Origin: Psammoneis japonica
Taxonomy: Eukaryota
DNA: 64,000 bases
Direction of reading: 5' to 3'
NCBI GenBank assembly: GCA_008632985.1
Contig: QPGO01000152.1
Span: 62,001 to 126,000, forward strand
Shown one piece after another: positions 8,471 to 34,055 of this stretch. A program made the position numbers and the translations under genes. A model generated the notes under the pieces. It made no database searches. It saw nothing but the letters and a program-made list of their open reading frames with translations, and was not told the origin of the DNA. Each line of letters opens with the position of its first letter. Position 1 is the stretch's first letter.

Positions 8471-9391
8471 ATGACTGCTTACCTTCTCTTCGATATGCTC
8501 AAGCTCGCCATTATGGCTGTTCTTGTTGCTTCTATTGGCATGGAAATCCCTCTCGCTTTGTTCTGCGTCTTCGTTTTGACGAAGAGCTTGGCCGTCCTTG
8601 TTTTCTTGATTTTCCGACGCGTCGTTTCGAAAATCTCAAAAGTAAAAGCGTTCTTCATGAAGGGTCTATCCATTCGCCTTCCCGTTCTTTCTACTGTTCA
8701 TGCTGTCATCCGAGTTTGGTTTTTGAAAAAGACTAGTGCGAACATTCGCCTTCCCGTCCTTTCTACCATTTATACCGTCATCCGAGGTTGGTTTTTGAAA
8801 GAGAATCTTGCGACCAAGCTCCAACGTGAACGCAAAATCGAAGTATTGAATCGCCACCTCAAGCTCCAGGAGGAACTTCGACAGTATGGCAGCACTTCTC
8901 TTCAAGGAATGGTGAATCGTCTCAAGCTCCAACGTGAACGCAAAATCGAAGTATTGAATCGCCACCTCAAGCTCCAGGAGGAACTACGACAGTATGGCAG
9001 CACTTCTCTTCAAGGAATGGTGAATCGTCTCAAGCTCCAACGTGAACGCAAAATCGAAGTATTGAATCGCCACCTCAAGTTCCAGGAGGAACTTCAACAG
9101 TATGGCAGCACTTCTCTTCAAGGAATGGTGAATCGTCTCAAGCTCCAACGTGAATGCAAAATCGAAGTATTGAATCGCCACCTCAAGCTCCAGGGGGAAC
9201 TACGACAGTATGGCAGCACTTCTCTTCAAGGAATGGCGAATCGTCTCAAGCTCCAACGTGGACTCAGGGAAGTCGCGGCGAAAAAGATTCAGAACGCATT
9301 TCGAAACCACGTTCAGGCAAAGAAAGACGCCAAGGAAATGGAAACCAAAATGCTTGAGCTCGTGCAGAAGATGCAGGCCTTGAAACTGTAA
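8471..9391 (+). CDS. Putative membrane-anchored coiled-coil tandem-repeat protein with C-terminal IQ-like motif
   Basis: Hydrophobic N-terminus, two 24-aa and four 36-aa repeats in frame, AAKKIQNAFRNH IQ-like motif. Confidence 0.6.
   Translation: MTAYLLFDMLKLAIMAVLVASIGMEIPLALFCVFVLTKSLAVLVFLIFRRVVSKISKVKAFFMKGLSIRLPVLSTVHAVIRVWFLKKTSANIRLPVLSTIYTVIRGWFLKENLATKLQRERKIEVLNRHLKLQEELRQYGSTSLQGMVNRLKLQRERKIEVLNRHLKLQEELRQYGSTSLQGMVNRLKLQRERKIEVLNRHLKFQEELQQYGSTSLQGMVNRLKLQRECKIEVLNRHLKLQGELRQYGSTSLQGMANRLKLQRGLREVAAKKIQNAFRNHVQAKKDAKEMETKMLELVQKMQALKL
8815..9260 (+). repeat. Coding tandem repeat, 108-bp unit x4 plus partial
   Basis: caagctccaacgtg recurs at 8815, 8923, 9031, 9139, 9247; units nearly identical. 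Confidence 0.95.
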
Positions 9392-11700: not shown

Positions 11701-12520
11701 ATTTGAGTTGGATACCATCGAACGAACGAACGAACGCAACGAAAACGATGCGATGACTGCACACTGAGCACACGCTTCGCTGCTGCTTCGCTCTGCTCTG
11801 GCTGAACGGCTGCTGTCTCACTTTCTGCACGAGTTCATCATGATCAGTCAGTGTCCTGCACTGCACGGCTGTCTCACTCTCGCTGCATGAGTTCATCATG
11901 ATCAGTGTCCCAACACAAAAGTGTCGCCGTCAAATCAGCGACTCAAGAGCGCGCACACCCGCCAGCAGTCTTGCGCTTCCTTTGGACATTCCAGCAAAAA
12001 AAGAGGGGGGCTGACCTCAGTGCAGCTTGTTGTCAATGTTGCCAGCATCTTGGGCTTGTGTGACTTGAGCCAACTTGATGATCACATTGTGGCAGTCTCC
12101 AGATGACATGGCACAACTGGCGGAGAGCGCACAACGCTGTGCCCCGAGCTGCGAGCCAGAGCTGTGTGCTCAATCTTGTGTTTTCTTTTGTCTTGCTCTC
12201 CTTTTGCCCCTCCCCCCTTCCCCCCCGCTGGTCACTTGCCTGCTCTTCTTGGTGCCAAGAACACATTTCTTTGACTTCTGAGCATCGTGGCTCAATGGCG
12301 TTTTTGTCTGCCATGATGGGGCGTGTCCTTGCTGGCCAACTGTGCAATTGTTGCCAGCAACATCAATGTTTTGCTGGCACCCCCTCCTTCTCAGAGCCTC
12401 CCAGCACCACAATGGAGTGTGTGTTGAAAAAATTGGGGGTTGGCCAGCTGCAGCTGCCCTGGCTGCCATTGCCAAAAAGCGGCTTTGGGTCTCTTTTTGT
12501 GGGTGCAAAATTTGAGCAGC

Positions 12521-12779
12521 CACAAAATGACAGAAGTTGAAGATGACTGGGTGGAAGAAAACAATGACTCCTTGCTGTTGTCCAAATGGCGCAGATGAGT
12601 TTCTGTTCAGAGATCATCACAGGAGCCAAGAGACTGGTGCCAGGATGTCACCACTGCTGTTGCTGTTCTTGTGATCCGACAAGTCGATTGAAAGAAAGCT
12701 GCGTTGCACATCACGTGCAGAGCTGAGAGCACACACACAATTGTGAATGACAAAATAAAATCTTGCTCAAATCCCATCA
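12521..12779 (-). repeat. 3' LTR-like repeat of the copia element
   Basis: Starts TGATGGGATTTG directly after the PPT; aligns with 15202-15453; distal end approximate. Confidence 0.75.
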
Positions 12780-15201
12780 CTCCCCAGTTTGTTTGAAGAG
12801 TCTGCAGCAACAGATTTGAGATTGGGCTGGATGAAGGCCTCGGGATTGAAGCCCCAAAACATCAGAGGATGGAGAAGGTTCCAGAGGAGCAGCCCCAGTG
12901 CTTGCTGAGAATGTTGGCTGGGTTGCAGGAACCTTCAAAGCAATGAAACTTGACTTGAGGAAACCAGAGGCAATTGCCTCACGTGCATGGTGGAATGAGA
13001 GGGTGGTGTGTCACTTGTGCAACTTGGAGTGTGGGACAGCAGCACCATCTGCAGCCAACTTGTTGTCTCCAAACATGTGACACATGTTGTGAGCGGGGAT
13101 GCTGAGGTGATGCAAAGTGATGCACAGATCAATGATCTGTTCAACACATGTCCTTGCAGCAACAAACTCAGATCCATGCATTGCAGTCTTGACTGTTGCT
13201 CTTCTTTCTTGGAAAACAACAGGGGAAACTTGTTGAGGAAATGGATGATGCCCGTGACAGAGTGTCCAGTGAGCACGCAATGGAACAAGTTTGCACCAAG
13301 ACAGTGAGTTGTGGTGATGAACTTGCCAAGTGGCTTGGGTGCATCTTGTGGGAGGAGCTCTTCTGCCTCTCCATGCATGGATTGAACCCAGTTGTGCACG
13401 GGCTCAGGGAGGTCCAAATGGCTGTGTTTCTTGGTGCGCACTCAGAGGGCACCATGTTGCATCTTGGACAGGAATCCACAGACACGTTTGGCATGACCCA
13501 GATGGCCTTGATGAGGTGCCATGCAGAAGCTGGACAGTGACACAATGGCTGCAGCAATGTCAATGTAACCGAGTGATGCAGCCCATCACAGGGAGGTCAG
13601 CCAACCAAAGATTGGAGTTGATGAATGCCATCAGGCTCAAGCAGTTCAAAGGTGTCAAGCTCAGGGGTGGTGTCCCTTCTCAAGAGGGAAAGCACATTGG
13701 TGCAAGGCTTCTTCCCAAAGAGATGTGTGCAGTTGTCAGCCATGCGCTCAATGCACTTGCAAGGAGCAAGGCACAGGGTGCCATCGGAATCATGGGTGAA
13801 GTTGCAACCAAGGTGGAACTCCAATGGTCCAGTGCCCTTGAGCTTGAGCTTGAGCTTGTGCTTCTCTGTGAGAGTGTCTGCAAGAGCTGAGAGTCCTTCA
13901 CGGTGAAGGCCAGGTTGTCCACATGCACCGTTTCTCCTTGGTTGTGGCTTTGAGACAGGCGTTGCCAATGCTGGTCACCCAAGTCTCCAGTTTGTTGAGT
14001 TTGGCCAGGAAGATCATCAGCCAAAGACCACAGAAGGACACCACTCCAGAGCAGACACTGTCAATGGGTGCATCTGTGAGGTGTCCATCGGCAACAAGTC
14101 ATGCTTTGTGCTGTCGATCATGTTTGACATTGCAGATGAGGTGCGCCCCAATCTTCTTGTGCTCTGCTGGGGCACTGGAGTCCTTGCAGTGTCTGCAATT
14201 GTGAAAGACTTTGTGCTCCTCACCAAGCTGGGTCATCTCAAGGTCCACTGCATCTCCCCACTTGTGGTTGCCATTGCACTTGTCAAGGGCCAAGGTGTGC
14301 TTGCAGCCCCGGGGCACATCACACCTGCACTTGTGTTGTGGCACAGTGGGAAATGAGTGCAGCTTGGCTTGGTTGGCCATGCTGTTCTTCTGGCACAGAG
14401 CTGTGGTTTGGAAGCATTTCCATCCATTGGTTTGAAGCAAACCATGCTCATGTGTGCAGATGGCACAGGTGATGGGATTGTCTTTGGCGATGAAAGAGGT
14501 TCCAACGTGATCCCCCCATGCTCCCATTCAAGCATGACATTGAAGCTTGAGCCTTTCCAGTGGGGGTCATGAGGTCTCAATGGTTCTTTGTGTGAAATGA
14601 TGCAACAGAACTTCCAGAGGGTGGCATCCTTGTCTTCTTGCTCCATGTGGTGCATGATGCCGCCATTGCAGGCAAGAATTTCCTTGCGTTCATCATTGTT
14701 GATGGAGCAAATGAATTTGACGAGTTCTGGGTTGTCACTGATTTCCCAGTCATGGTCTTCAATGGCCTTGACAACGCCGGCTCTGTGGCATTGTCCGTCC
14801 TCCCGTGGCTTCATGAGGAAGGTGCACCCAACAATGTCCTTGGGGTGAAAGACTTCTTTCCCAGTCATGGTCTGCAATGGCCTTGACAATGCAGGCTCTG
14901 TGGCATTGTCCATCTTCTTGTGGCTTCATGAGGAAGGTGCATGCAACAATGTCCTTGGGGTCAAAGACTGGCATTTTGGGCATCCTGATTGCCTCCCCAT
15001 CTGGCGAATCTGGTGAATCCTTGGAGTTGTGTCAGGATTTGATGATGGGTTGAGCAGATTTCCCATCAGGAGGATCAAGACAGAGGTTGCAGGCAGATGG
15101 GTTGAGGGTGGAGTGCACGTTTGATTGGCAAAGTGTCTTCTGAGTGTTGTCAGAGAGAATCTTGAATGTCATTTGATGACCCACGCCACACTCGGCAATG
15201 C

Positions 15202-15453
15202 CAACAAAAAACAGAAATCAAAGATGACTGGGTGGATGAAAACAATGGCTCCTTGCTGCAATCTAAACAGCACATGAGTCTCCATGCAGAGACCTTTGCA
15301 GGAGCCAAAAGACTGGTGTTGTGATGTTGGCACTGCTGTTGTTGTTCTTGTGAGCCAAGTGGCTCAAAAGCAAACCACATCATGCACCACACGCGGGACT
15401 GAGAGCACACACAATTTTGTGCAACAAACTGAAATCTTGTTCAAATCCCATCA
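15202..15453 (-). repeat. 5' LTR-like repeat of the copia element
   Basis: Diverged direct copy of 12521-12779 (shared agatgactgggtgga ... caaatcccatcac). Confidence 0.7.
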
Positions 15454-18400
15454 CAAAACAGAAAAGACCTGTGCTTCAACTTTCTGAAGAGAGCTCAGAG
15501 TCAGCTTGGTGCACCATGAAAAAAGAGTGTGCACCCCTCTTCCAACCCTCCCCTTTTTGCAGCTTTTCCAGGATGTGGCTTCCCTTCTCACTTGCCACTG
15601 TCTCACAGCAAGACTTGTCAATGACAAACAAATCACATTGTCATTGTTCAGCAGCTTGTGCAGCTGCTGTGAGGCAGCTTGCTTGGTGTGTCATGTGCAA
15701 TCTGCACACTGTTGCAACAAAAATGTCCAATGTTTTGTCCTCCAGACTTGTTTGAAAAACAATTTTGCACCACCAGCAGGATTGCTTTGGTGTTCTGAGG
15801 CTTGCTTTGCTCAACATGTTGCTTGCCACTCTCTCCCAATGAAGGCTCCTTGTGGGGAAAACCAAGTGAGGGCTGTGTGGCCTGCTGCTCCACTCTGGAA
15901 GCAAATTGAAAAAATGACTTGGATTGTGGGAGAAAGCACAGAAAGCAAAAAGGAGAAAAAGTCAAAAAAGTTGTCAGGACTTCAAAAACAAATTTGAACA
16001 AATTGTGAATGCACCTGACAAAAAACAAGCTCTCAGTTTTGTGTTTTTTTTTTGGTGTGTTGGGGGGGGGGGGGGGCAGGGTGAGATCATTTTTGGCAAG
16101 AAAGAAGTTTGAGGATGGAGTGTGCTGTGGCACAAAGGTGACTTGGTGAATGACCCTGCAACCACAGCAGAGTGCAACAAAATTGAGAGCTTTGTCTCTT
16201 GGTGTGACAAAGCTGGGATGCAGATGAGCTTGCATGCCCACCTCACATCAGGTGAGGTTTGTTCCCGAGTGCATCTTCTCTCAGTGGGTGACTCAAGCTT
16301 TGTCATTCTTCTTTAAAAGGGCTCTGTTTGATTGCCAGTGATTGTGAAAAAAAGATGCCTGGCAACAAACCAGCTTTTGTTCAAGACAAGATAGAGCGCT
16401 GCTTTTTGTTTGCATTGTTTGCCAGTTTCTTTTGCAAAAGCCACTGCCGGTGCATGTGTGGTTCAAAGATTGAGTGGAGGGGCTTGTCAGAGTGAATGTC
16501 TTTGCCAGCTTCTGTTCTGTGCTTTTTTGCCATTGAGAGCTGCTTCATTGAGATGGGAGGCATGTCTGACATAAAAGCTGTCCCCCACTCCTCATTTTTG
16601 CACTGCTTGGAAAACAGAGACAAGCTTTCTGCATGCACTTCACTCAGCTTCAGGCACAAGTGCACTTTGCTCACTTTGACATCTCCCAGGTTAACATGTT
16701 TGAGAGTGGGAATTTGGAGCAACAATGTTGTGCTCTTGTTCTTTGGGCATCAATTGAGGTGTGCAAGTGACAGCCACTGATGAAAAAGCCAAAAAGGGAA
16801 AGAAGAACGTGGCCTTGGTCTGGAGCATGCAATGAGGCCCTTGGCCAGGTGTGGTTGCCAAGAGCAGTGTGGGGTGAACCACAGCAGGTTGGGACAACAG
16901 AATTGTCACCTGGCCATTCTTGGCACAGATGAACAGATTGTGCTGGGCAGTGCATCAAAGCCAACAAAGATGGGCCCATCTGGAGAGCTTGCCAAACACT
17001 GGGGTGACAAAGGGGTGCATGTTGCATCATCTGGGGCAGCAGCTTTGTCTGCCTGTTTGCTGTTCAACAACTGGGCTGGGGCAAAACTTTGGTGGATTGA
17101 GGCTGTCCCCCAGCACAATGGTGAAAGAGACACTGAAACAAAGCCAGGTTGTCCATCAAAACAACAGATTGTGGGTGTGACAACAAGCAGTCTGCTTGTC
17201 CACACATGCTGTGGCACTCTTTTGTGTGCATCTCATGAGAAATGTGCTCATTTTCTGAGATGGCACCCCCAGGTTGTCCTCTTGAAAATGTGCCAAGCTC
17301 TTCTTTGTGTCTGAGAACAAGACCGCTGCTTGCACTCAGCAACAAGTGGACCAGTCCACCACAGAGAGAGGCAGTTGAAGGGAAGGTTGCTTTTGTTTCT
17401 CTGATGCACTCAGGTGGAGGACCTGCCCCGCAGCATCAGTTGAAGTGGGGCAGCAAAACCAACCAGCACATGCTTCCACAAACACCCAGTTGGGGTGCAA
17501 AAGCAACTCAACACAACAAAGAGCTGCTGCTGCCTGTGTTGCCAGCCATTGCTTCTCTGCCACAAGTTGTTGTGCACAAGCTTGTGTTTGGGAGGCTCGC
17601 ATGTGTTTCTCTCAACAGAGCTCTCATGAATGACTGAAGTCAGGCTTGGCACTTGCAGCATGAGAGCATTGCCACAAAGCAGTTCTGCAAACCCTGCATG
17701 CACCTGCTGTCTTGTTGGGTTGTTGCCTGGGCCAATCATCCACACCAGCATGTTGTCACATTGTTCAGTTGATCTGAAACTGTGGTGTGGTGTGGAGAGT
17801 GAAATCATGCATTTTGTGTGTGGTGATCAAGGTTCCTGGGATTTGTTTGGGCATCTTGACACAAGAACATTTTTCATGTCAGATTGGCACCATCTTTGTC
17901 AATCTCTCGGTGGGTGCAGCCAGTCTTTTTTTTGCTTTGGATGTGCAAATGGTTTGTTGTTGTCTGCCCCAGAAGATCACAACAGAGGGTGCCCCACTGG
18001 ACAAAAAAACAACTCCCACAATGGGTGGTGACAATCATTTGCATGCCAGACATCACACCTCATCCCCAGATCCTGGAGCTGTTTGGACAGTGCAAGCCAG
18101 ATGCTGACTTTCTGGTTTTGCAGAGTGCAGGTCCACTGCCCACCAGCAAATGGACTCTTGCTCATTGTGAGTTGCTGCTCCAGCTTTCATTGCAGAAATC
18201 TGTGCAAAAACTGCACCAACTTTCTGCACAAGGTTTTGTTGATGTGCAGTTTTTCTCTCAAGTTGAGCTTGGCAGAACTGCTGTTCTTTGTTGTTCTTTG
18301 CCTTGGATGACCTTTGTGCAAGAAAGTGGCAGACATGACAAGATGTTTCTCCCACAAGTCAAACTTGGCAGAACTGCCATGCCATTTGTTGAAGTCTCTG

Positions 18401-20800
18401 GCAACCTGTGCAATGAGATGGCAAAAGACAAGGTCGGTCAGATGTGCTGGTGAAAGGAGACGTTGCTTGCAAGCTGCACAGATCACTCCCACAACAGGAT
18501 GTTTTGTTGCCCAAGCAAGCTTGTGGGGGAATGCCACTGGCATCCCTGGCGGGCATTGTGACACCCCACAGTGCCACAGGCTTGGATGACAGCATTTTCC
18601 TTTCTTTTCTTGGTCATGCAAAGCTCATTTTAGTCATCCAAAAGGACTCTGGTGGCTTCTGGCATCATGGTGCACAGTGCCCCAGGTGGTGCACCACTGG
18701 GCTGGGTCACAATTTTTTGTTCATTGGGAAGTGTGGCAACACACTGTGAACTTTTGCTTTGGCATGCACAGATGCAAATGGGACTTTGTGACAGTGCTTG
18801 ATTTGCAAGGGAGAGAAAAAAACATGCTGCCAAGACATCAGAAAAAGAGAGATCACTTGCAGGCCCATGTGACTGACCACACTTGAGTTTGCACTGCCTG
18901 TTGTGCAGCAAGTGGGTGCAATCTCTTCTGGAGGAGAGAGATCCAGCACTGGCGGCACCGTTGTGGAGGAAGAGATGAACAATCAAGAAGAGGAAAATGA
19001 TGCTGGCAAGTGGAAGCAGAAGAGAGCAAAAAAAAAGGCGCCATCAAGACCACCACCTGTCCCAGCAACTCTGCAGCCAGCAACAACTCAAGACATCCAG
19101 AGTTGACAAAACAGGGCACTGTTGTCTGCTGCTTTTCACTGATTTGATGTGTGCAATTTTCAGCAACAAAACAATGAACAGCTGCAAGGGAATGCTGCAG
19201 GTGGATGCATGATGAAGAAAATGCAAAAAGAAGGGTGCACAACATGTTTGGAGCTGATGTGTTCCCACAGCTCAGAACAGGAAGTGTGCGAGAGATTTCT
19301 TGTGGCTCCAAATGACAACAGCAACAATTGCCAGAATGTCTTTTCCCCTCAGTGGCAAAGACAATGATGGCAAAGGATGTGACATTGTCACCAAGTTTGC
19401 CACAAGATGTTTCAGAGGACAAGCTGTTGTCTGCCTTTGCAAGAGCAAAGGGTCCAAAAATGGATGTCCACCAGACACATCATGACTGTGGACTGACAAT
19501 GGGGCAACAAGAGCAAGAGAGAGAGACAATGAGCTGCCAGTGGCCACACATGCACAACAGTCAAAGCTGCAGCAGCCGCAGCAGCAGCAGCACAGCTCTG
19601 GCCACTTGCAAACATTTGCCAGTGTGAGGAGCAGCTGAAGCCACTCAAAGCAAACACACTCTTTGGGGTGTGCAGGAGCAATGCAGAGCCAGCAAAGGAC
19701 CAGAAGCTGGCAGAGAGAGAGAGAAAGAGAACAAACAAAGCACTCCAGCTGATTGCCTCTCACCTCCAACATCATGAACATGACCACAACAACATGCCTG
19801 TGGATGCCTTCATCAAAGCCCTCCACGTTGCAATGAAAAACAACATGTTCGCATTTAGAGACACCACCTGGCACCAGCACAATGGAGCCACCATGGGCAC
19901 ACCACCCACTCCTCCATGCACCACCCTCTGCCACGCCCTTTGCAAAGACATGCTCCTGCCTGGACAAGTTTGGCTCCCATCTCTGCTGCTGCAAATGCCT
20001 CATTGACAATGTCTTTGGCATCTGGCACATCACCAACCCTGCCACCAATGCTGCAAACTGGGAAGCATTTGCCTCCAGGCTCAATGACTTTGACATCACC
20101 TGAGCCATGAGCCCAAGAAGCCACCAAGTGAACTTTGTGGACCTTGTGACCTCGCTCCAAGGCTCACACCTCCATGCTGCCCTCTGTGACAAAGAAATGA
20201 ATTTGTGCATGTGCACCCCACCACACTCAGCTCACCCACCTGGAGTGCTCACCGGCCCAATCATGGGCATGCTCTTTCACTTAAAAAATCTCTGCTCCAA
20301 CCAAGATGATGCCAAAGCAAAAAAGAAATTGCTCTGCCACCCACTGCAAGCCCCAGTGGCTGCAAGCCCAACAAACCACTGCCGCTCTTCTACAAAGCAT
20401 GCAACCTCATCTTTGGCAATGCTGCCAGAGCTGAAGAGCCCCAGTCAAACCCCATGTTCTTGCACTTCCCATGTCTCATCCAAATGTGACCCACCATCAA
20501 GCAAACTGCAGAAGCTCTGGAAAGGCACAATGGCCCACCCTCCCTGCTCACAATCCCTGCTGCAGTTGCTTGCATGACCTTGGAAAGTTGCTCCGATGTC
20601 ACAACCTTTGCATCTCCCATGCCCCCCCCATTTTGTTCCACAAGGTTGCAAACAGAGAGGCCACTGAGAGACAAAGAGAGATGGGGGGAGAGAGAGAGAG
20701 AAACAGCATGGTGAGTTGATTTGAAAAAGCAGTCAATTGAGTCCACCCATCTGTCCCCCACCACTTGGATCTTTTTAACGCAACAACCTCAACCACGTGA

Positions 20801-20869
20801 ACAACAACAGCCGGCCACTGATGAAGCCACCATGAAAGTCTCGCCCCTGACTTTGGCCAACATTGTTGT
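20801..20869 (+). ncRNA. Minimal type I hammerhead ribozyme candidate, copy 1
   Basis: Stem I GGCCA(20813-17)/TGGCC(20854-58), CTGATGA 20818-24, 1-bp stem II, GAAA 20834-37, stem III AGTC/GACT, CUU cleavage triplet. Confidence 0.7.
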
Positions 20870-22518
20870 GCCTGCTGTTCATTGAAACAGTTGGACAAAC
20901 ATCCAAGCTGGTGGCTTCACCTTGGCCACTGGTGTCATCTGTTTGTCACATTTGACAGAGCATCTGCAGCACCAATTCTGTTTGTTCATTTGAGAGAGAG
21001 TTGAAAGACAACAATGGACGCTGCAACCAAGACCAGCATCCCCAAATGTGTGCATTTTGATTCAAGAACTGTGGTGAATCCCACCCACCAGCAACCAAGG
21101 ACACCCCTTGCCACCGCCACCCAACACATCAGGGACCACATCGCATTGCTCCAACCTGAGACAGCCGCCATCCTTGAGAGGCTTGCACTCCAACACCTTC
21201 AACTGCAAGCTGAGGCCAATGACAAGGCCTTTCATGTCAAGAAGATGAGTCATGATGAGGAGTTTATCCCCCACTCAGCCAGAATCAATTTTGAATTTCA
21301 AATGTCAAAAGTGGCTGAACAGAGCCAGGAGTTTGCAGCTCTGCAGGAGGAAACAAACCACCCCATCAAACACACCCAAAATGCTTTCAAAAAGCAAACA
21401 ATCACAGCCACCAAGATTGAGTGCAAAGTCCTTCAAGAAGAAATTGTGGAGTCCTGGGCAAAAGCCATCCGACTCTCAACAGAAAGTTTCACACTGTGGC
21501 AGACAGCGTCACCACACCTGTCAACACCGCAGTGGCCACTCTTCTCAACTGCTGCCACGAATCCTTGCTCAAGCACATCAAAGTCCAAAATCACAAAACT
21601 TTTCTTGAAAAGCACCAGACCGCAAACAATGTTGCAACCTCACCCCAACCACTGATTGCCCCCACTGCCAGACAAACCAGCACGCAAGAAGAAAATGGCA
21701 CCAAAGATTCTCCATTTCTGATGCAGCTGCAGGCAACAGCACAAGTGCCAACACACACTGCAGCCCAGCAACAAGCCAAAAGCCAACTTGACAAAATCTT
21801 TTGACTCCTGTCAAAAAAGATGGGTGAGGAGCATTTTGAGTCAAAGCAATGGAAAACACCAACATGGAAATTGATGGAGAACCTGCAGTTGACCCCACCA
21901 CCCTGAAAAAACCAATTCACAAGGAGATGGAGAAAATCACCAAAAGGCCAACTCAGCAGGTCAACTCACTCTTGCAACACATCAAATCCATGAAACGACA
22001 GTTGTCAAACAAACAGAGAGGCCCAACCAGCAATGCCGGTGCCTCATCACAAGAAGAAAAAGGCAAAGGTGCCTCGCTGGGTTGCTCAAGGAAACAATGC
22101 CCTCCATGTGACCACAGAGCCAACAATGCCAACAAAGACACCACTGGCGCCAACAAAAACAATCGCCGCTGCTCCAAATCAAAGCAGCCATCACAGAAGA
22201 AGCAGCAGCACTCCAATGCCAACCGGAACAGGTGCCAGAGATGACATCAACATGAATCCACCAAATGCATGGATTTGTTGCTGATCCTTCCAAATTGCTC
22301 TCACACAACACCTTTCCACACCTTGGTGACATGCCTGCTTGGCACCACTTCAGCAGACCATCACATCTCTCCTTTTGCGACTGCACATCTGTGCTCAAAC
22401 CACCCAAGAACCTTGAATCACTCCTTGGTCTCAGCCTCAAGTTCATCCCCACACCTCACTTCACCAGCAGTGGCAAGTCACTCAAGTTCCAAGACCATGC
22501 ACTTGGACGCTTCAAGCT

Positions 22519-23620
22519 GGACCTGGACAAGTGTCACCACTTCGCAAATGCGCCAATTGACAACAACAATGACTGCAACCCAAGAATGCACCTTCGATCC
22601 AACTGGATGCCACCCCCTTGGAACAAAACCAAAATCGTTGAATGCCGCTGCATGAATTTCAAAACAAAACTTGTGCAGCTCTTTGCCAAACGCCATGGCA
22701 GAACCAACCTCCTGCCCCACCAATGCCGCACCCTCACCTGTCTGCACAAACAAGACAACTTTGCAGTTGCCCCATGTGACAACAACCTGGGCCCTGCCAT
22801 TGATGAAAAAACTGAGTGCATCAAAATGGCGTGCCATGATCTCAACAACGCAACTGCACACTGCTGTCTCACCAAATCAAGAAGCTTCTCACTGACTGGC
22901 TCAGAAAATGCAAAGCCGATCTAACCCCAATGGAACGCAAGCATCTCAAACATCACATTGAGACTGACCAAAGTCCATTCCCTGTCTTCCACCTCACTCC
23001 AAAGGTGCACAAGCCCCTGCCACTTGAATCGTGACCCATTGTCTCTGCAAGAAGTGGCAGCCTGCCACATGGGACCTGGGCAAGTGTGACCACTTCGCAA
23101 ATGCGCCAATTGACAACAACAATGACTGCAACCCAAGAATGCACCTTCAATCCAACTGGATGCCACCCCCTTGGAACAAAACCAAAATCGTTGAATGCCG
23201 CTGCATGAATTTCAAAACAAAACTTGCGCAGCTCTTTGCCAAACACCATGGCAGAACCAACCTCCTGTCCCACCAATGCCGCACCCTCACCTGTCTGCAC
23301 AAACAAGACAACTTTGCAGTTGCCCCATGTGACAACAACCTGGGCCCTGCCATTGATGAAAAAACTGAGTGCATCAAAATGGCGTGCCATGATCTCAACA
23401 ATGCAACTGCACACTGCTGTCTCACCAAATCAAGAAGCTTCTCACTGACTGGCTCAGAAAATGCAAAGCCGATCTAACCCCAATGGAATGCAAGCATCTC
23501 AAACATCACATTGAGACTGACCAAACTCCATTCCCTGTCTTCCACCTCACTCCAAAGGTGCACAAGCCCCTGCCACTTGAATCGTGACCCATTGTCTCTG
23601 CAAGTGGCAGCCTGCCACAT
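22519..23620 (+). repeat. 553-bp near-perfect tandem duplication inside the PLE RT ORF
   Basis: ggacctgg(a/g)caagtgt at 22519 and 23072; duplicated translations in the ORF track. Confidence 0.95.
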
Positions 23621-24910
23621 GGCTTGGGCATCTGGGTGGACGGCAAGCTGCAAAAAGTTGCGCGCAAGCAACCATCACACTTTAAAAGCTTGTTGGACCT
23701 AAAAAATGAACTGGTCCAAATGGCGGCATCACCGACTGCCTCCTCTTCACTTCAGATGCCAAGTCCCTCTGCTCAAATGTTCCAACAAGCTGGGCACTTT
23801 GAGCAATGCATCACAGCCTGCCTGCAACGACATGAGAGTGAATTACAAGATGTCCCAACAGAGGATCTTGTCAAAGCCCTCCACATTGCAATGAAAGACA
23901 ATGTCTTTGCCTTTGGAGACACCATGTGGCTTCAACAAACACACCACCCACTCCGCCATGCGCCACGCCATTGTGCACATTGCACAAAGCCGTGCTCCTG
24001 GAAGAGTTTGGCACCAACCTTCTCTTCCACAAGAGATTTGTTGATGATGCATTTGGCATTTGGAAAATCACCAAGCCTGCCACCGACGATGCCCATTGGA
24101 CAGCATTTGCCTCCAGAATGAATGGCTGCAACATCAATTGGGTCACGAGTTCCAGATCACACACAGCAAACTTCATGGACCTCACCATTCATCACACTCC
24201 AAGGCTCTCACCTGCACACCACTCTCTGTGAGAAAGAAATGAACCTGTGCTTGTGTGTCCCGTCACACTCAGCCCACCCACCTGGAGTGCTTGCCAACCC
24301 AAATCATGGGCATGCTCTTCTGCTTTAAAAACCTTTGCTCCAATCCAATCAACGCCAAAGCAAAAATGAAACTTTTGCATCTTCACCTGCTTGCTTGAGG
24401 CTGCAGACCCAGCAAGCTCCAACCCGTCTTTCAAAAAGCACACGACCACTTTTTGGCAACATGACAACAGCAGAAGTGCCCCCATCCAACCCTCCCATCT
24501 TCCTCCACGTCCCATGTCACCCAAACGCCAAACGACCTGCCATCAAGCAAATTGCAGAATGCCCGGAAAGGATTGATGGCCTCTCCCCCTCACTCCCAGC
24601 CACTTGCCAACATTCGAAATCACAGCCGGCAATGCATTGGCTTGGAGTGCATGACAGTTTGTTGCAATTGATCACGCAACCTTGGCAACCTCCTTTCGCA
24701 TCACATCCTGCACATCTCCACTGGCCCCCCAGTTTCTTCCCACAAGATTGCAAACAGGGAGGCCACTGAGAGAGAGAGAGAGCAAGAGAGAGAGATGGAG
24801 AGAGAGAGAGAAACAGCATGGTGAGCTGATTTGAAAAAACAATCAATCTGGTCCACCCATCTGTCCCCTGCCACTTGGATCTTTTTAGTGCAACAACCTC
24901 AACCACGGAA

Positions 24911-24978
24911 ACAACAACAGCTGGCCGCTGATGAAGCCACTGTGAAAGTCTCACTCCTGACTTTGGCCAACGTTGTTG
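24911..24978 (+). ncRNA. Minimal type I hammerhead ribozyme candidate, copy 2
   Basis: GGCCG/TGGCC stem I plus distal CAACAAC/GTTGTTG helix, CTGATGA 24928-34, GAAA 24944-47, stem III AGTC/GACT. Confidence 0.7.
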
Positions 24979-26459
24979 TGCCTGCCATTTGTCGAAACAG
25001 CTGGACATGTGTCCGAACTGGCAGCTCTGCCCCAGCTGCTCTCATTCTTTGTTTGTCACATTTGATGGAAAATCGGCTTTGCCAATTTTGTCGTTCGTTC
25101 ATTCGAGAGAGAGAGAGAGACAATGAGCTGCTGGTGGCCACACATGCACACCAGTCAAAGCTGCAGCAGCAAGAGCAACAGCAGCAGAGCTCTGGCCACT
25201 TGCAAATCTTTGCCAGTGTGAGGAGCAGCTGAAGCCACTCAAAGCAAACAGGCAACTCTTTGGAGTGTGCCATTTTGTGCTGCCAAGTTGCAACATCATG
25301 GGTTGAGCTGCAATGCAGGGAAAGCAGCTGTGCTTGGCAGCCATGGGTGGGGACTCCACAGAAATCACATGGGAGCTGTTTTTTTAGAAAAATCAACCTC
25401 GTTGCCCAAATGGACCATGGCGGTCATCATCGTTGTGACAAAAAAAAGTGTCATCATCACGATTCGTAAGACTCAACGTGCGGTCAAAACGCGCAAGTCC
25501 GAGCTTCCATCTCCCACCACAGCCTTCGCCAAGCAACAACCAAATCAACCCACCGTTTCTCACCAAATCGCTTTCGCACCCTCAGGATCATCATTGGAAA
25601 AGTTGCACTTTTGACACCATCGTGTCCGCCGTCATTGAATTGGGTGGGGTGCAGCGAAGTGCAACTTTTGGCTGCAATCTCACCAAACAATTTTGAAATC
25701 TCTGCGAGTGCCCACATGTCTCGTTTGAACAACATGCCACCATCCAAATGGCACTTTCGTGAGACAGAACTGAGCCGCCTGATTGGAACAAAGTCAAAGG
25801 ATGGCCAGTCGGCATGCACGCAAGTTGGAAATCTGCTCACTGCATTGCAAAAGGGATGTTTTCACAACGTCAGGAAGGGCACGGACGGACTGCAGGGTTT
25901 CCCGTGTCAGATCTGCTCTGCACAAAGCACTCAACAAAATTGTTTTTAAGATTCATTGTTTCAATCATGGATGCCCAGAAGATTTCAAAACGAGTCATCT
26001 GCAAGAGGATGTTGCTGTCTCAAGAGTGCCAGGACACTTTGCGATCGGGTGTGGCATGGAGAATGGATGGATGCAACTCTTCTGATTCAAAAGAATGGCA
26101 ATGACAGGAAGTGCAAGCGACCCCACTTTCATTCCAGAATTTCGACAAAGGTGAGTCTCTGACAGCGCAGTCATTGAAGCGAATGTTGTGTTCTTTCATC
26201 ACTTGTTTGCCTCACCTTTCTGTGGTTGTGTTTCATGGGCATGTGCGAATGCTGCAGTGGGAACCGATCTTTTTGGTTTGGCTTTGTGACACCAAAAGGC
26301 ATGATTGATTTTCTGTTTGTCACGGAGACCCATCGCTTCTGCAAAGACACTAAAGAGCCCTTTTCTTTTCTTTCTTTTTGTTGCAAGCTCGTTGACGACA
26401 GTGACTTCTTCACACACAATCACTCGGATCATCACAGTGGCAACAGCATCGCTGTCGCG

Positions 26460-27290
26460 CGGGACAAGAGTTTGCCGTCAAGGGCATTCCAACCAAACAA
26501 CAAACCCTGTTGACTGAGGATTCACACCACACTTCAAGCCAAAGCCACCGTGTTGCAGGAATTGAATCATGCCTTCAGCGACACGGTGTGTTTTGCAGCA
26601 GCAAACCCAGTGTTCTCATTTGGTGAGTGCAGCGGGAACGCATCTGGTTGTGCCTGCTGTCTTTTGTTGGCAATGTGTGAAACAATGGCAGCACTGACTC
26701 TTGCCCCTCCCCCAAATGACAGCTTGCCCACAGTTCATGGAGATTTTGCACAGTGGTGGCCTTCTTGATCGGATCATGTCCAAAGGCAAGAACTCTGAAG
26801 TTGAAAACTGCCGAGTCATGAGACGATTGCTCAGTGCTGTTTGACATCTCAGTGAGGACCGCCAGGTCCTTCATGGTGAGTTGAAGCCAGAAAATGTTCT
26901 GACAATTGATTGCAATTCTGATGCGGCATTGGTGTCAAGCTGACAGACTTTGGAGATTGGCCAAAAAGGACGAGGGCCTCCTGAAGACCTTTTGTGGAAT
27001 GCCGCTGTGCTTTGCACCCAAAGTGTTGCAATGCCATCACATGGTTGCTGGATGAGGAAGTGCAGCAAAAAGGCTGACATGTTTTCGTTGGGAGTCATTC
27101 TCCACATCTGCCAATTGGCATTCCTCCTTTTGATGGCGACACTGCTGGAGCCGCCAAAGGTCAAGCGACGTTTGCGCCAGATGCCTTTGCCAATGTTTTG
27201 GAGGCAGCCAAGGATTTGGCAATTGGGTGGCTTCCGCCAGATCCAAAGGACCTGTCAGCAGTGCAAGAAGCGTGTCAGCACGAGTGGATG
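26460..27290 (+). pseudogene. Intron-containing CAMK/Chk2-like Ser/Thr kinase pseudogene (may extend 5' to ~25400)
   Basis: Ordered subdomain remnants across frames: GQEFAVK, VLQELNH, MEILHSGGLLDRIMSKGK, LHGELKPENVL, VKLTDFG, LKTFCGMPLCFAP, ADMFSLGVILH, AKDL..ACQHEW; GT-AG intron ~26623-26733. Confidence 0.85.
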
Positions 27291-30200
27291 TCGATCGATG
27301 ATGGAGACACGCGTGTTCATCCTCTGGATGATCCCGTTTTGGCCAACTCCGAAGACGATGAGATTGACACAAAGGGATGGAGGACAAAGAAACGACTCAC
27401 ATCGGTTTGCAAACAGAAGAGGAATCAGAAAATGTGGATGTTGGTGAAACTTTGGAAGAGGACTCAACGGTGATGAGCAGAAGGATGCGAACACGAGAAC
27501 AGAGGAGACAACAAGCAAACGTGACCTTGTGAGAGAGGCGAATTGGGTTGTCACTCCAAGGGTGACGGGGAATTTTAAACACAGAACAGACAAGTGGAGA
27601 GAACAAAAAAGGTAGATTTCTTTGTGCTTGTGAAAATGTGACCTCAATTTCACCGCAAAAATGGTGCGCATTTGTGCTCAGTTGATTTTTACACGGTGAA
27701 GTGCGGCAAAATCGAGAAAAGTGCTGTTTCACGTTCTCTCCAACTGCGCAGTCAGGTGACTTGGTAGATGCACCACAAGAGACGCGAGAGCTTGCACTTT
27801 TGATGTCGGTCGCCATTGGCATCATTGAAGCCGCAACAACATTCCAAAACCACAAACGAGTCAACGCACAAAAAACTTGAATTTTTTCAGTCGTGATTGC
27901 ACGGCAAAGTGCGGGAAAATGGCGGTCACTTCATCGCTCTCAATCTCGACAAATGCAAGGCCAATGAAAAAGTTGTGCCCCGTTCCAAGCACCTCTGAAC
28001 ACCCTCTGTCGAACAAGGTGACTCTCGTTTTGATCAAAAAAATTTGTTTCTGCGTGATTTCTACAGCGCCCCTCCCACAGCAGCTGAAAAAGGAGGAGAG
28101 GGTTTGCTTTTGCAACTCAGGTGACGACTTTGAACATGTGGGGCATTTTGCCATGGCTTTGTTGCTGGCTTCTTGCCAAGGGAGATGGTTGAGGAGGCAA
28201 AATGCAATGTGCAGCCACTGGTGAGAGCCAGTGCATCACGGTGACGTGTTGCAGCCTTTGAGTGTCACAAAGGGCGTGACAAAAACAACCTTTTGTCGGC
28301 ATGCACACTGCATGATGAATTCACAGCGGAGTGGTTCATCGCAACCATCAGGCAGGAGGCCAGGGGTTCGAAACCCTGAGTGGGAGTTGTCTGCAGCAAC
28401 GTTGATCACTGTCGAACGCGCAAAACTCTGTGCAGTTCTGTGTGTTCCTTCGCACGCACCCACACTGTTCCGCCAAAACCGTGCAGTGTCAGTGCACGTT
28501 GGCAAAGAGCCGCATGGACGCGTGACACATGGGGAGGAGTGCAACATGCAGCCACTGACAAGAGTTGATGCATCACGGCGACGTGTTGCAGCCTTTAAAT
28601 GTCACAAAGGGCGTGACAAAAACAACCTTTTGTCTGCACGCACACTGCAAAAAGCTCCACATGCCTGCACCATCATAAAAGACACGAATGCATCATGAAC
28701 ATGATGCCATGAAGAGCACAGCAGTGGAGCCACTGCTGGAAGAGGCTCTCAGAAACAAGCTTGGGGACAACACTTTTGGCACAGAGCTGTGGGTGTCAGA
28801 AGATGCTGCTGCACACACTGAGCTGTTTGCACCAAAAGAGAGGAGAAGGAATCTTTCTTTTTTTGACAAAAGCAGCAAATGCCACCTCTTGAATGCCGCT
28901 TGTTGGGTGATGAAAAAAACAGAACAAAGTTGTCATGCTCAAAGCTTTTGGGCCCAAAGGCTTGCCAAGTGGTTCGTGACTGTGCAAAGAGGTGCAAAGA
29001 ATGACATGTCCGGTGAAATAAATGTGTCAAGGCATGCACCCACTTTCACATCAACATCGGTGCAGACAATTGCTCCATCTCTTTGGAGCACTCCCAGATG
29101 TTGGAAAAAGTCAGCCTGCATGGATGAGAGAACCGTGTGAGAGGAGAAGAAATCTTTCTTTTGTTGACAAAGCAGCAAGCGCCAACTCTTGACTGCTTCT
29201 TGTTGGGTGATGAAAAAAACAGAACAAAGTTGTCATGCTCAAAGCTTTTGGGCCCAAACGCTTGCCAAGCATTGCAAGCTGGCAGTGCCTGCCACCTCTT
29301 CTGGGCCTTCATGCTCAATTCCTGAGAGCTTCAATGTGACCATCAAACTGTGCAATGCACTCTTGCTTGTGTTCGCCCCCCTCCCTGGCACTGAAAAGGC
29401 TCTGAAGTCATTGATGCCAACAAGCACTCTTTGAGCTCCCAGGCTTCATGGCGAGTGGGCCAGATTGCTTGTTTGCTGAGTGGACCCAGTGCATGGTGAA
29501 GCCTTGCCATGATGAGAAGACAAGGCAAGCTTCTTCCACAGTGCAAAGCTTTGGTGCACAGGCAGGACTCAACCCACTTGATTGCTGCAAGGTCAGAGCC
29601 TCTGGTGTTTTCTTTTCCAATCTTTTGACTTTTTCTTCAACCCACACAATTGTCTTGTTGGTTGTTGCTGAAGAGCCACCCAAGCACAAGAAGATCATGC
29701 TGGCAACCCTTGGGGCTCATGTCTCATCCATCATCTTTGTCATTTGGGTGAGCTGAGAGGCGCAGCAGTGCCAGAGCCTTCTCCAGCTTCATGGCCACAC
29801 CGTCTGATCATTCCGCTGGATTCTTGACGGCAACGTGAGAGGAAACAGAAGAGTGCAGCCAAAGGGCACTGTTCAGAAAAAAAAATGTTCCGCACTGCTG
29901 GTGCTTCAGCAGTGCTGTGCTGCATGTTTTGCAAAACAGAGCATTGTCTGCTGCCAGCTGCCCAGGGTGGCGAGAGTCGCCAACATGATGGTGCAGAGAG
30001 CAAAGCCAGCTCGATTGACAACAGAGAGGGCGGCAGCACAGGTGTCAGTGCTGAGGGCAATGACAACGTTCATGGTTCTTTCCCCCCTCAAGGAGCGAAC
30101 CTCTCATGCTGAAACTGCTCTGCATGCATCTGCATCTCAAATTGATCCACGCATGCACCACAAGCGGCAAGCGGCAAGCCGGTGATGTGAGAGATCCAAG

Positions 30201-30521
30201 CAAGGAGCAAGCCTGCACAAACTAACTGTCGGTCATCACAGACAGAACGTACGTACAGCACAGGTACAATTGTACCGTATGTAAAGAATATACCAGAACC
30301 TTGCGTCACGTCCTGTCACGTCACTCTGACGTTTGGCCTGCTCACGTCGAACCAAGAAAAACGTGGCGGGAAGGCTATGCACGTGAAATCAGTACCGGAT
30401 CTGCAGTAGAAATGGCCGCATCATTCATCACTCGCATCACCGAACTCACGCACACAAGAATTCTTTCTGGACTAAGACAGAGGATACCGGTACAAATCCG
30501 AAGGAGTAAGTACTTTTGACC

Positions 30522-31004
30522 ATGACGGAACACGACGACCCTGTTGAAACGGCGATGGACAAGCTTAAGCCCCTCTTCTCCCAGTTGACCTTTGGGAGCA
30601 TCATGGGATTCAGCTCTGGATACGCTATGAAGAAAGTCGGCAAGGCCGTGGCTGTCGTTGTCGGAATGGGTTTCGTTGCACTTCAGGGCGCCGCGTACGC
30701 GGGCTACATTGACGTGAACTGGGACAAGCTCAAGGCCGGAGCGAAAAAGAAGATTGATACGGTACGTTTGCAATTTGGAGAAGCTTCCGATAGGCTTAGA
30801 TCTAGATTAATCATGATTCTTTCGGTTCTGGACTCATTTTTCCTTCATTTTTGTTTGTTTCTTTTTCCGCAGAACGCTGACGGCAAGCTCGACAAGGAAG
30901 ACGCCAAGGCGTACTGGAGAAAGCTCAAGAGTATCCTCACGTATAACCTTGGCTCCACAACTGGTTTCTCTCTTGGATTCGTCTACGGTGTCAAGTCTGG
31001 TTAA
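30522..31004 (+). CDS. FUN14 family protein (exons 30522-30761, 30873-31004)
   Basis: QLTFGSIMGFSSGYAMKKVGK...GYIDVNW; GTACGT...CCGCAG intron 30762-30872. Confidence 0.9.
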   Translation: MTEHDDPVETAMDKLKPLFSQLTFGSIMGFSSGYAMKKVGKAVAVVVGMGFVALQGAAYAGYIDVNWDKLKAGAKKKIDTVRLQFGEASDRLRSRLIMILSVLDSFFLHFCLFLFPQNADGKLDKEDAKAYWRKLKSILTYNLGSTTGFSLGFVYGVKSG

Positions 31005-31459
31005 ACAGATCTGACTTGGAAGTATATGGAGGGGATGATTCGGCGGATAGATCAGTCTCCGCCCCGAACGAAGAGGTCGTGCTACGTTTTTAGTCAGGGC
31101 CTCGTAACATATATGTCTAGAAGCGATAAAACAAAACTTTCTTGAGTCGAATTTTGCTTTGATGTGCAGAAAATGCATGTGCTACGGGTATGGATCGCGA
31201 CGGATTGAATAGTCGAACTCAGTAATACACGGTTCCAGAAAATCAGACCACTGTCATGTTAGATGTGAAGTGTACTCCTGAATTTGATGGTTCAAGACAT
31301 TTTCGCTACTAGCCATCCTTTTAGGTTGCTACACATCTCACAGGAACGACCGATGGCGCGAGTAGTGCGGCACACATTACTGCTAGCGGGAGCTTCGTTA
31401 AACTCTAGCAGACGCGCTCTCTTCTTAGAGCTAGTTAATCTACCGCTACAAAACAGCTC

Positions 31460-33780
31460 TATTCTGCAGCAACCAAAGAATGCGCTGGGGCCTGTCTCAT
31501 CCTGCAATGAGTGATTTTCTTTGCATTGAATGCATTGCAAAAGTGCTTCTGAGGCAATGTCATCGTGGTCCCACCCAGAGCTGGAACATGTGTCACTCAC
31601 CAATTTGGACAGCAAGAAAGAAGAGTTGGCAAGAGACAAGATCGGTGCTCAAGTCCAGCGTGGGATGGATAAGACAAAGCAGAGCCAAGCTGAGACAGAG
31701 GAGAGAGTTGAACAAGAAAAATTGGCTCTCCAAATGCAGAAGAAAGTCAGCAGTGTCAAGGCTGCCGCCCAAGCTGAAATCTGACATCAAGCTTGGTGCC
31801 AAGAAGGAAGAAAAGGCACAGGCTTGGAACAGCAAACAAGAAAGTTAACAGCATCAAGGCTGCCACCCAAGCTGAAATCTGACATCAAGCTTGGTGCCAA
31901 GAAGGAAGAAACAAAGGCACAGACTTTGAACAGCAAGAACACACATGCGTGTGATGGATGATTTGTGCGATGTTGCTGGCACAGGTTGGCTGCACATCTT
32001 GATTGCATCACAGGGACTGCCCAATGCAAGCAAGATGTTCATCACCTTTCATTGCAAAATGATGCACAGTGTGATGGCTGGGTCTTGTCTCTCACACGGC
32101 TTTTTTGTGTTTGCACCAGGTGCAGCACCAGCAAGAGATGTCAGCTCAAAACATGGGCACTTTGTCCCAAAGTTTTGCCAACATCTCTGGTTTCCAAAAA
32201 GATGTTTTGCAAGGTTGTGCCAGCTCAAACAATGTCACACCATGATGCAGAATTCTCAAGCTCACTGGCTGCTGGTGTGCCAACAAGAGTTTGTTCATCA
32301 GCCACCCTGTGTCAATCTCTCCAGTGTGGTGGCAGCAATCACATTGGCACAGAAGCTGCATCTGCCCAGCCAGCAGCAGCAATGTCAAGGTCACTGGAGT
32401 GTAGAACAACAGCCATGCTGGCAGTTTCTTGCAGCTCCTGCTGTCACTCAAGCCTTCTGCCCAAGCCATTGTCAGAAGCAGCCTTTGCAGCAGAGAAGCC
32501 TGGGGGCTTGGTGGCTTGACTGTGTGTGCCAGAACAAGATCAACTTTTTTACCATGGAATTGCTCACATTGAATGGCGAGTGTGAAAATGCCTGCAAACA
32601 ATTTGTTTCCTTGGTTGCAACAGAGCACACCATGGTGGCACACACAAAGAACGTGTCAAAAATCACCTCCACTGGTCTCCATCACACAAAGTCACATGTG
32701 AGCCACCTTTGGTTTGCCCCAGCAATGCACCTGTGTAAATTTACAGAGCTGATTGTTTTCCATTGGCCCCTTCATGAAGACACAATCAGAGAAATCATTG
32801 TTGCATGATGGCAGCCACAAAAGACTGTTTGAGTGCAAAAAACAAACAAACAATGAGTGGGTGGAGTTCATCCTCTGAACCAAACAATCAATCTGCCAGC
32901 CCCATTTTTCCTTGCAGCAGGAGCAGCACCAGTGCAGGAGCACCAACAACACCCACTCTGCCAACTCAGCGAGGATGTTTGCAGCCTTGCAGCAACTTGC
33001 ACACAACAACTGCTGTGCAGAACCAGCAGCAACAACCACACCAGCAACCACAGCCACATTTTCAGCCACAGCCACAGCAGCAAAAAGCCATTTTGGCAAC
33101 CACAGCAACAGAGTTGGCAGCCTCAGCAGAGTCAAAATCAGCAGCAGTGTCAGTTGTTGCCAAATCAGTTGTTGCAGCAGAGCCAGCAACAACTTCATCC
33201 ACCATTGCAGCAGAGCTGACAACAACCTTGCATGTCATTGTTGCAACAGAGCCAGCAACAACCTTGCCAGTCATTGCAGCAGGCCAGAGCTGGCAGCAAC
33301 AACAATGTGAGCAGCCAAGAAAAGAGCCACAGCAAAAGAGTTGCAAGTCAGTCGCTGGTTGCAGCAAGGCAGTCAGGTTCAAGAAAACAATTGGAAATGA
33401 CCAATGTTGCTGCCTCTGATGCTCTCCTTTCATCAGCCACAGGAGCAGACGAACCCTCCCTGGACTTGTTTCTGCAGAGTGCTTGACAAACTCTGCACAC
33501 AACAATGGAGAACCTTTTTCCATGTTTGGCTTTTGTGCTGGTGTCAAAACAAAACAGCACCCCCAGCTGAATCTGAAGCAGCATTTGTTGTCAATTCATT
33601 CAAATCAGTTGCCAATGAATTTGTTGCCAGAAAACCACAAAGGCAGGGTGCAGTTGCATTGCAGTTGAGTGCGCTTGACAAACACCGCCCAAAGAATTGC
33701 AAATTTGAAGCCAAGAATGCAAAAAGTCTTTTGTCACTAATGTTGTTGCAACAACAGTTGTGCCTGGTGGTGCTAAACGC
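31460..33780. other. TpA-depleted zone 2: unidentified low-complexity/repeat remnant
   Basis: Very few TA; internal duplication ~31755-31835/31853-31935; CAG/CAA-rich tract 32920-33320. Confidence 0.85.
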
Positions 33781-34055
33781 CACTCTCTCCGAGCTCTGTT
33801 AGTTAGAGAGTTAAGCAAGATTTTTTTAATTGAAGGAAACAGAATTTTCAGTTTGATGTCATTGGAACCAGCGCGCGTTCCGTAGTCCCTATCACAAGAG
33901 AGTAGAACGCACGGTCTCTACCGGTAGAGTAGCTACTCTCTAGCTAGTACCGTAGTAGCTAATAGCCCCAGAGATGATGCGAAGCTTCATGCAACGAGAG
34001 AAGACGCGCTCTCTTCCTAGCTAGATCTTATTCTCCCCGCTATTAAGCAGCGAAC

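Follow-up and report, generated by a model that had tools for sequence, protein, structure and literature searches.

A 64,000-nucleotide stretch of the diatom Psammoneis japonica (GenBank assembly GCA_008632985.1, contig QPGO01000152.1, positions 62,001 to 126,000 of the forward strand) was analysed, and this whole stretch is hereafter called the window. At 25400–27620 of the window, the remnant of a kinase gene lies in DNA from which the dinucleotide TpA, written TA in the counts below, has almost disappeared. The kinase stretch would be a dead copy from a small family of dispersed repeats that carries a cellular-type gene with FHA and kinase domains together with an intron. Its present state would result from a dinucleotide-specific transition at the DNA level, TpA>TpG on either strand (read as TG or CA), which would be near completion and would have affected all repeats of the window. 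As the most likely chemistry, adenine at TpA would be deaminated to hypoxanthine in a targeted manner wherever DNA is silenced or repeated. In addition, a second and slower process, CpG>TpG/CpA, presumably the deamination of methylated cytosine, would operate in the same domains, and the kinase unit would have been less exposed, with its TA gone and approximately 60% of its CG left. Taken as a whole, this explanation is considered likely.

The loss of TA at the kinase locus was determined from dinucleotide counts. Only 5 TA were found at 25400–27620, whereas 146 were expected from base composition and 83.5 at the density of normal genes, 37.6/kb (Poisson p ~2e-29). TG and CA were counted 215 and 221 times, with 139 and 138 expected, and the gains of the two were equal and about matched the loss. 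The loss was specific to TpA, as TA collapsed while AT (125 vs 146 expected) and GC (138 vs 131) were both near normal. CG was reduced less severely, to 83, with 131 expected from composition and 131.8 at the normal-gene rate, and its density of 37.4/kb exceeded the 11.2/kb of the adjoining repeats at 12001–25270 (Fisher p 2e-16). The interval 27181–27560, which the first-pass annotation had described as having many CG but no TA, was found to hold 17 CG (22 expected) and 0 TA (23 expected), in agreement with that description. When the locus was divided into parts, no TA remained in the 100 nt of the intron or in the 913 nt of the exons, and the non-coding flanks were depleted too. The depletion of TA at 25400–27620 was therefore confirmed as real and far beyond chance.

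The identity of the gene was established by protein searches. The 141 residues that can be read from 26698–27120 served as the query of an exhaustive phmmer search, which returned 483 proteins at E<=1e-3, with a best E-value of 1.5e-15 and identities of 30–55%. All ten of the top matches that were scanned had a Pkinase domain, and six of them had an N-terminal FHA domain. The Pfam Pkinase match of the remnant was weak (E 1.6e-5, 24.9 bits, under the curated 31.7). Nine aligned relatives make up a conserved family with a characteristic tail C-terminal of the kinase domain. Using tblastn and a frameshift-aware alignment, the kinase domain was found to be colinear with its homologues on 26423–27335, distributed over three frames with approximately five frameshifts (Table 1). 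The earlier claim of a kinase remnant was thus borne out by both the phmmer match and the colinear alignment. The catalytic loop is mutated and reads HGE in place of the HRD of homologues; with this broken loop, two stops and approximately five frameshifts, the remnant is a dead gene. Its kinase motifs and the family tail motif are held in common with FHA+kinase genes of the Chk2/Rad53/Cds1 type, although those genes have intact catalytic residues and an intact reading frame, and the remnant has neither. Judged by sequence, the gene appears to be a cellular-type FHA+kinase gene of Chk2/Rad53-like architecture, which is a likeness to the family from which orthology to Chk2 itself does not follow. 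The possible FHA piece gave no Pfam match and was seen by eye and by alignment only. A word-index search of longer proteins with the C-lobe and tail (131 aa) gave 264 candidates, none of them at E<=1e-3. A metagenome scan with the nine-member family alignment, whose patterns were generic kinase motifs and from which 80 loci were kept, yielded no parent gene; a relative is encoded in 590 of the 601 stretches that matched, with identities of 47% at most.

The intron reported by the first-pass annotation was verified, as its excision restores the frame. It is located between the helix-C region and the hinge, where the DNA exceeds the homologues by ~100 nt, and excising 26623–26722 brings frames 1 and 2 together in a single reading of 99 codons, which is colinear with all four homologues. 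The absence of introns that marks a processed (retro-copied) pseudogene was therefore not found here, since a GT-AG intron of 100 nt has been kept. A second intron at 26151–26387 is plausible. Family-like metagenome loci (e.g., L035 and L042) showed no intron across the 26623–26722 span, but these loci are of unstated origin and carry little weight. Moreover, the proposal that the mutator acts on DNA and not on RNA or a retro-intermediate was supported, because intron, exons and flanks are all TA-free or nearly so. Action at the DNA level was further indicated by the equal gains of TG and CA, by the TG/CA pairs of the neighbouring repeat described below, and by a mutation accumulation study of the chlorarachniophyte Bigelowiella natans, which is discussed later.

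The copy number of the kinase unit was estimated by placing contigs of one public DNA run (X1) on 24800–28300 at >=80% likeness; of the words sampled from the stretch, 0.79 occur in this run, and no RNA run was listed as containing it. A total of 752 pieces aligned, with 91 at >=99% likeness, 116 at 95–99%, 288 at 90–95% and 257 at <90%. The word depth of a single contig is ~60, whereas summed depth was 110–450 over the kinase part and 900–2300 over the flanks at 25385–25850 and 27608–28075. Related copies in X1 thus number about 2–7 for the kinase (middle) part and about 15–40 for the flanks. Several contigs also bridge internal deletions, e.g., of 585, 490, 207 or 149 bases. Consequently, the stretch is a repeat and not a lone gene copy. 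Termini outnumber middles, as in transposon families with deletion derivatives. No inverted repeat was found at the ends of the unit at 25385–28075, no significant similarity was detected between its two flanks, and nothing similar to the unit was detected elsewhere in the window; accordingly, no transposon class could be assigned to it. Capture of the gene by a Helitron-type element was considered as a candidate route. The view of the first-pass annotation that a host kinase copy had been hit, and that the mutator is not limited to transposable elements, was not sustained: the unit belongs to the repeats, with multiple copies and deletion derivatives of its own, and so does not demonstrate action on unique host DNA. 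The segment directly downstream, at 28076–28192, has a summed depth of roughly a single contig and lies within the TA-free domain.

The direction of change was evaluated from the codons, from a simulation and from related copies. Six codons correspond to Tyr in at least two of four homologues, and five of these positions are invariant in nine aligned family members. In the remnant, they read CAT, TGC, TGC, CAC, TTC and AAC, i.e., His, Cys, Cys, His, Phe and Asn. Tyr was kept at none of them, and four of the six have become Cys or His, as a transition at TA predicts. The two Tyr changes that had been read from the motifs PLCFAP and GVILH are real, with codons TGC at 27008 and CAC at 27103. In a forward simulation on normal genes, converting 92% of TA and 38% of CG to TG/CA predicted 101 CA and 102 TG per kb; 98 CA and 97 TG were observed, while a transversion model predicted 88 CA and 89 TG. 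In the neighbouring repeat, the copies at 19813–21011 and 23871–25123 are 69.6% identical. TG in one is aligned with CA in the other at 27 sites (TG/CA pairs), and no other double difference occurs more than 4 times. This indicates that one ancestral dinucleotide was resolved separately in each copy. Among related X1 contigs, 424 of 551 variant places were transitions. Among the 40 variant rows listed of 573, at least 11 have A or T against TG/CA in the window, which would restore TA if the neighbouring base is unchanged, and at least 5 would restore CG. A second library (X2) had been made from this sample, and the loose ends of its contigs have TA and CG at places that read TG in the window.

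Several observations weigh against this reading. Two of the invariant Tyr codons, at 26574 and 26791, are now Phe (TTC) and Asn (AAC); these may be transversions at the T or A of TA, or unrelated older or later differences. The composition fit of the transition model was just modestly better than that of the transversion model, with a root-mean-square deviation of 6.9 vs 7.7. The aligned TG/CA pairs of the neighbouring repeat fit an ancestral TA and an ancestral CG equally well. Run X1 may be the assembly's own sample, so it bears on copy number and is not independent proof of the sequence, and the variant detail rests on the 40 of 573 rows just described. Furthermore, neither a parent nor an intact paralogue was present among the protein collections and metagenome loci searched, and the ancestral state was therefore derived from homologues only 30–55% identical to the remnant.

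The loss of TA was then compared with the decay of CpG. Relative to normal genes, the kinase unit has kept 8% of its TA and 63% of its CG, the block at 12001–19000 has kept 3% and 15%, and the block at 52525–54500 has kept 32% and 72%. Assuming one exposure time for each block and first-order kinetics for both losses, TA would decay ~3.5–5 times faster than CG. A tandem duplication at 22519–23630 (560 bp, 97% identity) has 10 base differences, of which 5 are CG<->TG/CA and none is at TA. As the tandem copies differ at CG but never at TA, CpG decay must have gone on after TA was exhausted, and the duplication is dated later than the TA loss. The CpG retained in the kinase unit fits a shorter exposure, with no separate targeting needed. 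The claim that the mutator is separable from CpG deamination thus stands with respect to extent, whereas a shared exposure with two rates also fits the blocks; the mechanisms probably differ too. Decay of CpG by methylation and deamination in silenced repeats resembles what is seen in the low-TA domains of the window, where CG has likewise gone to TG/CA (9–14/kb vs 59/kb in genes). However, such decay cannot remove TA, and at the kinase locus it is far less advanced than the TA loss.

The borders of the depleted DNA are sharp. A single-copy FUN14 gene lies in an island of normal composition between two TA-free domains (Table 1), ~260 bp from one and 450 bp from the next, and its TA and CG are normal. 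The kilobases flanking the island have 1 and 4 TA, compared with 63 in the 1200 bp of the island. Since FUN14 was spared, proximity to mutated repeats is not enough. This speaks for a process that recognizes the repeat, or the chromatin of the repeat, and does not simply spread. Spread from adjacent transposable elements, another suggestion of the first-pass annotation, is accordingly unlikely as the sole cause. Throughout the window, depletion is confined to foreign or repeat domains, seven in number, beside unaffected genes with 34–40 TA/kb.

Other origins of the kinase stretch were considered. It might be a host gene's segmental duplicate, itself unique and mutated only through silencing or mutagenesis that spread from adjacent transposons, and the TA-free state does run unbroken from 11701 to 30250 over unrelated elements, including the segment of approximately single-contig depth at 28076–28192. 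However, the kinase unit occurs in several copies at >=80% likeness with deletion variants, and FUN14 keeps normal TA and CG at short distances from two TA-free domains, so that this origin is regarded as unlikely. The family could also be foreign DNA, e.g., viral, that is natively poor in TA and was never mutated. Giant viruses commonly carry kinases. The hypermutated targets described for B. natans in the preprint's main text are integrated viruses (bioRxiv 10.64898/2026.01.13.699255). Nevertheless, none of the 80 metagenome loci came near the observed/expected ratio for TA of 0.03 found here at 49% G+C; their lowest value was 0.24, in contigs of 65–73% G+C. Moreover, the replaced Tyr codons, stops and frameshifts indicate decay, and less mutated copies with TA exist among the run contigs. 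Natively TA-poor DNA is hence the least credible of the origins weighed here.

An origin in RNA would involve A-to-I editing of the kind performed by adenosine deaminases acting on RNA (ADAR), followed by genomic fixation when the edited transcripts are reverse-transcribed. An A>G change that follows T is what is seen here, and T is a neighbour favoured by ADAR according to the main text of the B. natans preprint (bioRxiv 10.64898/2026.01.13.699255), and reverse-transcriptase-like motifs were seen by eye in the adjoining element at 19–25 kb, although Pfam did not confirm them. On the other hand, the intron was kept and is itself TA-free, and the strand products are equal (TG 215, CA 221), whereas ADAR hyperediting clusters A>G on one strand. 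The loss is also near total and limited to one dinucleotide, in contrast to the graded neighbour preference of ADAR, and the block with a PIF1 helicase (Helitron-like) was depleted as well; editing of RNA is thus very improbable. Equally improbable is a sequencing or assembly artefact, e.g., miscalls at modified bases that turned TA and CG into TG/CA. Modified motifs lead to systematic miscalls in some long-read data, and the only run found to contain the stretch may share its sample with the assembly. Yet short X1 contigs match the window with 0–1 differences over 242, 287 and 265 bases, the frameshifts and non-TA changes of the remnant are typical of real decay, and paralogous copies have alternative TG/CA states. 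The reading as a dead member of a repeat family, mutated as DNA, was therefore preferred. Table 1 summarizes the features on which it draws.

Table 1. Features of the kinase unit and its surroundings, in positions of the window.
Feature	Position	Strand	Description
Low-TA domain, largest of seven	11701..30250		18,550 bp, 34 TA, CG 17.9/kb; contains the kinase remnant
Multi-copy unit with kinase remnant	25385..28075	+	Delimited by summed contig word depth in run X1
Possible FHA-domain remnant	25654..25770	+	NGTFV motif, frame 2, weak alignment to homologue P0056
Candidate upstream intron	26151..26387	+	GTGAGT donor, long pyrimidine tract, AG; 1 TA; signals only
Kinase N-lobe remnant	26423..26622	+	Includes the glycine-loop and helix C regions and the FAVK lysine motif; frame shifted once, between 26509 and 26526
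GT-AG intron	26623..26722	+	100 nt, phase 1, GTGAGT donor, pyrimidine-rich tract, CAG acceptor; 0 TA, 16 TG, 8 CA
Kinase C-lobe and family-specific tail (end HPLDDP)	26723..27335	+	Four frameshifts, ~26925, 26955, 27058, 27108
In-frame TGA stop	26842..26844	+	
In-frame TGA stop	27053..27055	+	Arg in homologues; consistent with CGA>TGA
Normal-composition island	30251..31450	+	1.2 kb, 63 TA, 77 CG; between two TA-free domains
FUN14 gene	30510..31001	+	Single-copy; Pfam E 5e-25; spared

The window is eukaryotic DNA of ~49% G+C with long genes and few introns. Its normal genes encode Nup107, an MIP channel, a CRAL-TRIO protein, TAF1, an M14 carboxypeptidase and a Sel1-repeat kinase, and a PIF1-type helicase is also encoded. 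In protein searches, Nup107 matched Cylindrotheca at 32% and Attheya at 31%, with a top match overall of 46%. The NDUFA9-like protein matched an 'Asterio…' entry at 77%, Attheya at 68% and Ditylum at 65%, followed by Eucampia, Conticribra, Cyclotella and Thalassiosira. The named relatives of both proteins are all diatoms or placed among diatoms; as no identical protein was found for either, the protein collections searched do not include the proteome of the host itself.

Two kinds of DNA can be distinguished in the window. The normal genes have, per kb, 34–40 TA, 57–62 CG, 71–77 TG and 61–76 CA, whereas the low-TA domains have 1–12 TA, 4–45 CG, 89–125 TG and 92–153 CA. Besides the largest domain, which contains the kinase remnant and is continuously TA-free through several unrelated elements, low-TA domains were delimited at 31451–33800, 44551–48300, 48401–49250, 49801–52100, 53251–54350 and 60701–63400. 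The G+C of TA-depleted DNA is unchanged at 48–50%, and CpA is enriched. Many open reading frames of 150–320 codons occur in all six frames of these domains, because without TA only TGA stops are left. When 22 such frames from low-TA blocks were searched against Pfam, none scored above the curated threshold, and two sub-threshold matches (LRR_3, MMS19_C) were obtained, whereas a control frame from the normal-composition island, searched alongside, matched FUN14.

Further repeats were observed around these domains. The neighbouring repeat has a 160-bp piece beginning with (GA)n at 19516–19673 and 25110–25270 (91% identity), on opposite sides of its 1.2-kb common part, and this shared piece may be a terminal or long terminal repeat (LTR)-like segment. 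Downstream of the kinase unit, summed contig depth in run X1 rises to ~98,000 at 28193–28300, roughly 1,500 times that of one contig, which marks the start of a very high-copy repeat; internal direct repeats of 300–337 bp follow at 28203–29269. On the minus strand, 49486–52524 contains two long open reading frames, one with PIF1-helicase/AAA_30 domains (Helitron-like), at 9 TA/kb and 27 CG/kb; this partly depleted block may be a younger target of the TA-loss process. Repeats at 52525–54500 are likewise depleted in part, with 12 TA/kb still present. At 55575–57040, a Sel1 array of ~108-bp units, 72–84% alike and normal in TA, lies within the 1514-codon Sel1+kinase frame at 55410–59954. Within-gene repeats as diverged or as short as this array seem not to be targeted. 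At 8815–9266, three to four tandem 108-bp units of 97% identity and normal composition lie within the reading frame at 8360–9391.

The closest known system is that of B. natans, as described in the main text of a preprint. In a mutation accumulation study, two integrated viral regions received 231 of the 302 nuclear mutations, and of these 231 all but one were A>G or T>C changes, 230 in number and each located at TpA (Mettrop et al., version dated 2026-04-14, bioRxiv 10.64898/2026.01.13.699255). The rate was ~6e-7, about 1000 times background, with the effect seen in 11 of 15 lines, and an ADAT2-like deaminase was proposed as the enzyme (bioRxiv 10.64898/2026.01.13.699255). The B. natans genome also has 324 coding sequences with a TpA frequency of 0.0018, among which domains of transposons are enriched, and its depleted windows form 124 clusters (bioRxiv 10.64898/2026.01.13.699255). 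As far as that text goes, the same dinucleotide and probably the same two products are involved in both organisms, in nuclear DNA and in particular domains beside normal genes, and the TpA frequency of the 324 depleted coding sequences agrees with the 1–3 TA per kb seen here. The two cases differ in several respects. The lineage is a diatom here and a chlorarachniophyte there. Saturation is near total across whole domains here, whereas the viral regions measured in the preprint still had 3.3–9.2% TpA. The target here is a multi-copy unit with an intron-bearing gene of cellular type, and those measured there were single-copy viruses. Loss of CpG accompanies that of TA here, while CpG does not occur in the preprint's main text. 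De novo mutations were seen in B. natans, whereas the diatom locus is known from the end state of its sequence alone. Thus, the signature appears to be the same. New in the present case are its lineage, the degree of saturation, the loss of CpG that goes with it, and a target that is a cellular-type gene with an intron. In the literature searched, no report of TpA hypermutation in diatoms or stramenopiles was found, and the B. natans preprint was the only relevant paper.

Repeat-induced point mutation (RIP) of ascomycete fungi, the functional analogue of the process, was also compared. The enzymes of RIP are RID and DIM-2. Like the diatom process, RIP makes dinucleotide-specific transitions in repeats, hits duplicated cellular genes as well as transposons, has sharp borders and fills genes with stops. 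The duplicated state of the targets was likewise found here, at ~2–7 (middle) to 15–40 (flank) copies. However, RIP is mainly C>T at CpA and creates TpA, whereas the diatom process destroys TpA and G+C does not fall, which makes it a mirror image; C>T at CpA with an excess of TpA and a fall in G+C was not observed in the window.

The locus makes three contributions: the kept intron implies a DNA substrate, a cellular-type gene is unprotected once it is repeated, and the TA process can be distinguished from CpG decay by its extent. For annotation, TA-free domains produce false long open reading frames and gene calls, and similarity searches fail to reveal where their repeats came from. A natural A-to-G DNA enzyme acting at a fixed dinucleotide would also be of interest to base-editing research. 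More broadly, and only tentatively, since we would put it at somewhat less than an even chance, diatoms may own a saturating, TpA-specific DNA adenine-editing defence that acts on repeats of any origin, whether transposon or intron-bearing gene copy, apart from CpG decay and several times faster than it. This would be the same system as in Bigelowiella, an old 'mirror-image RIP' shared across stramenopiles, alveolates and rhizarians (SAR), and the enzyme behind it would be an adenine deaminase that occurs in nature, acts on double-stranded DNA and follows a dinucleotide rule. If this is true, the TpA>TpG/CpA mutator would not be peculiar to one alga and its viral inserts but would be a general repeat-directed defence in one major group of phytoplankton.

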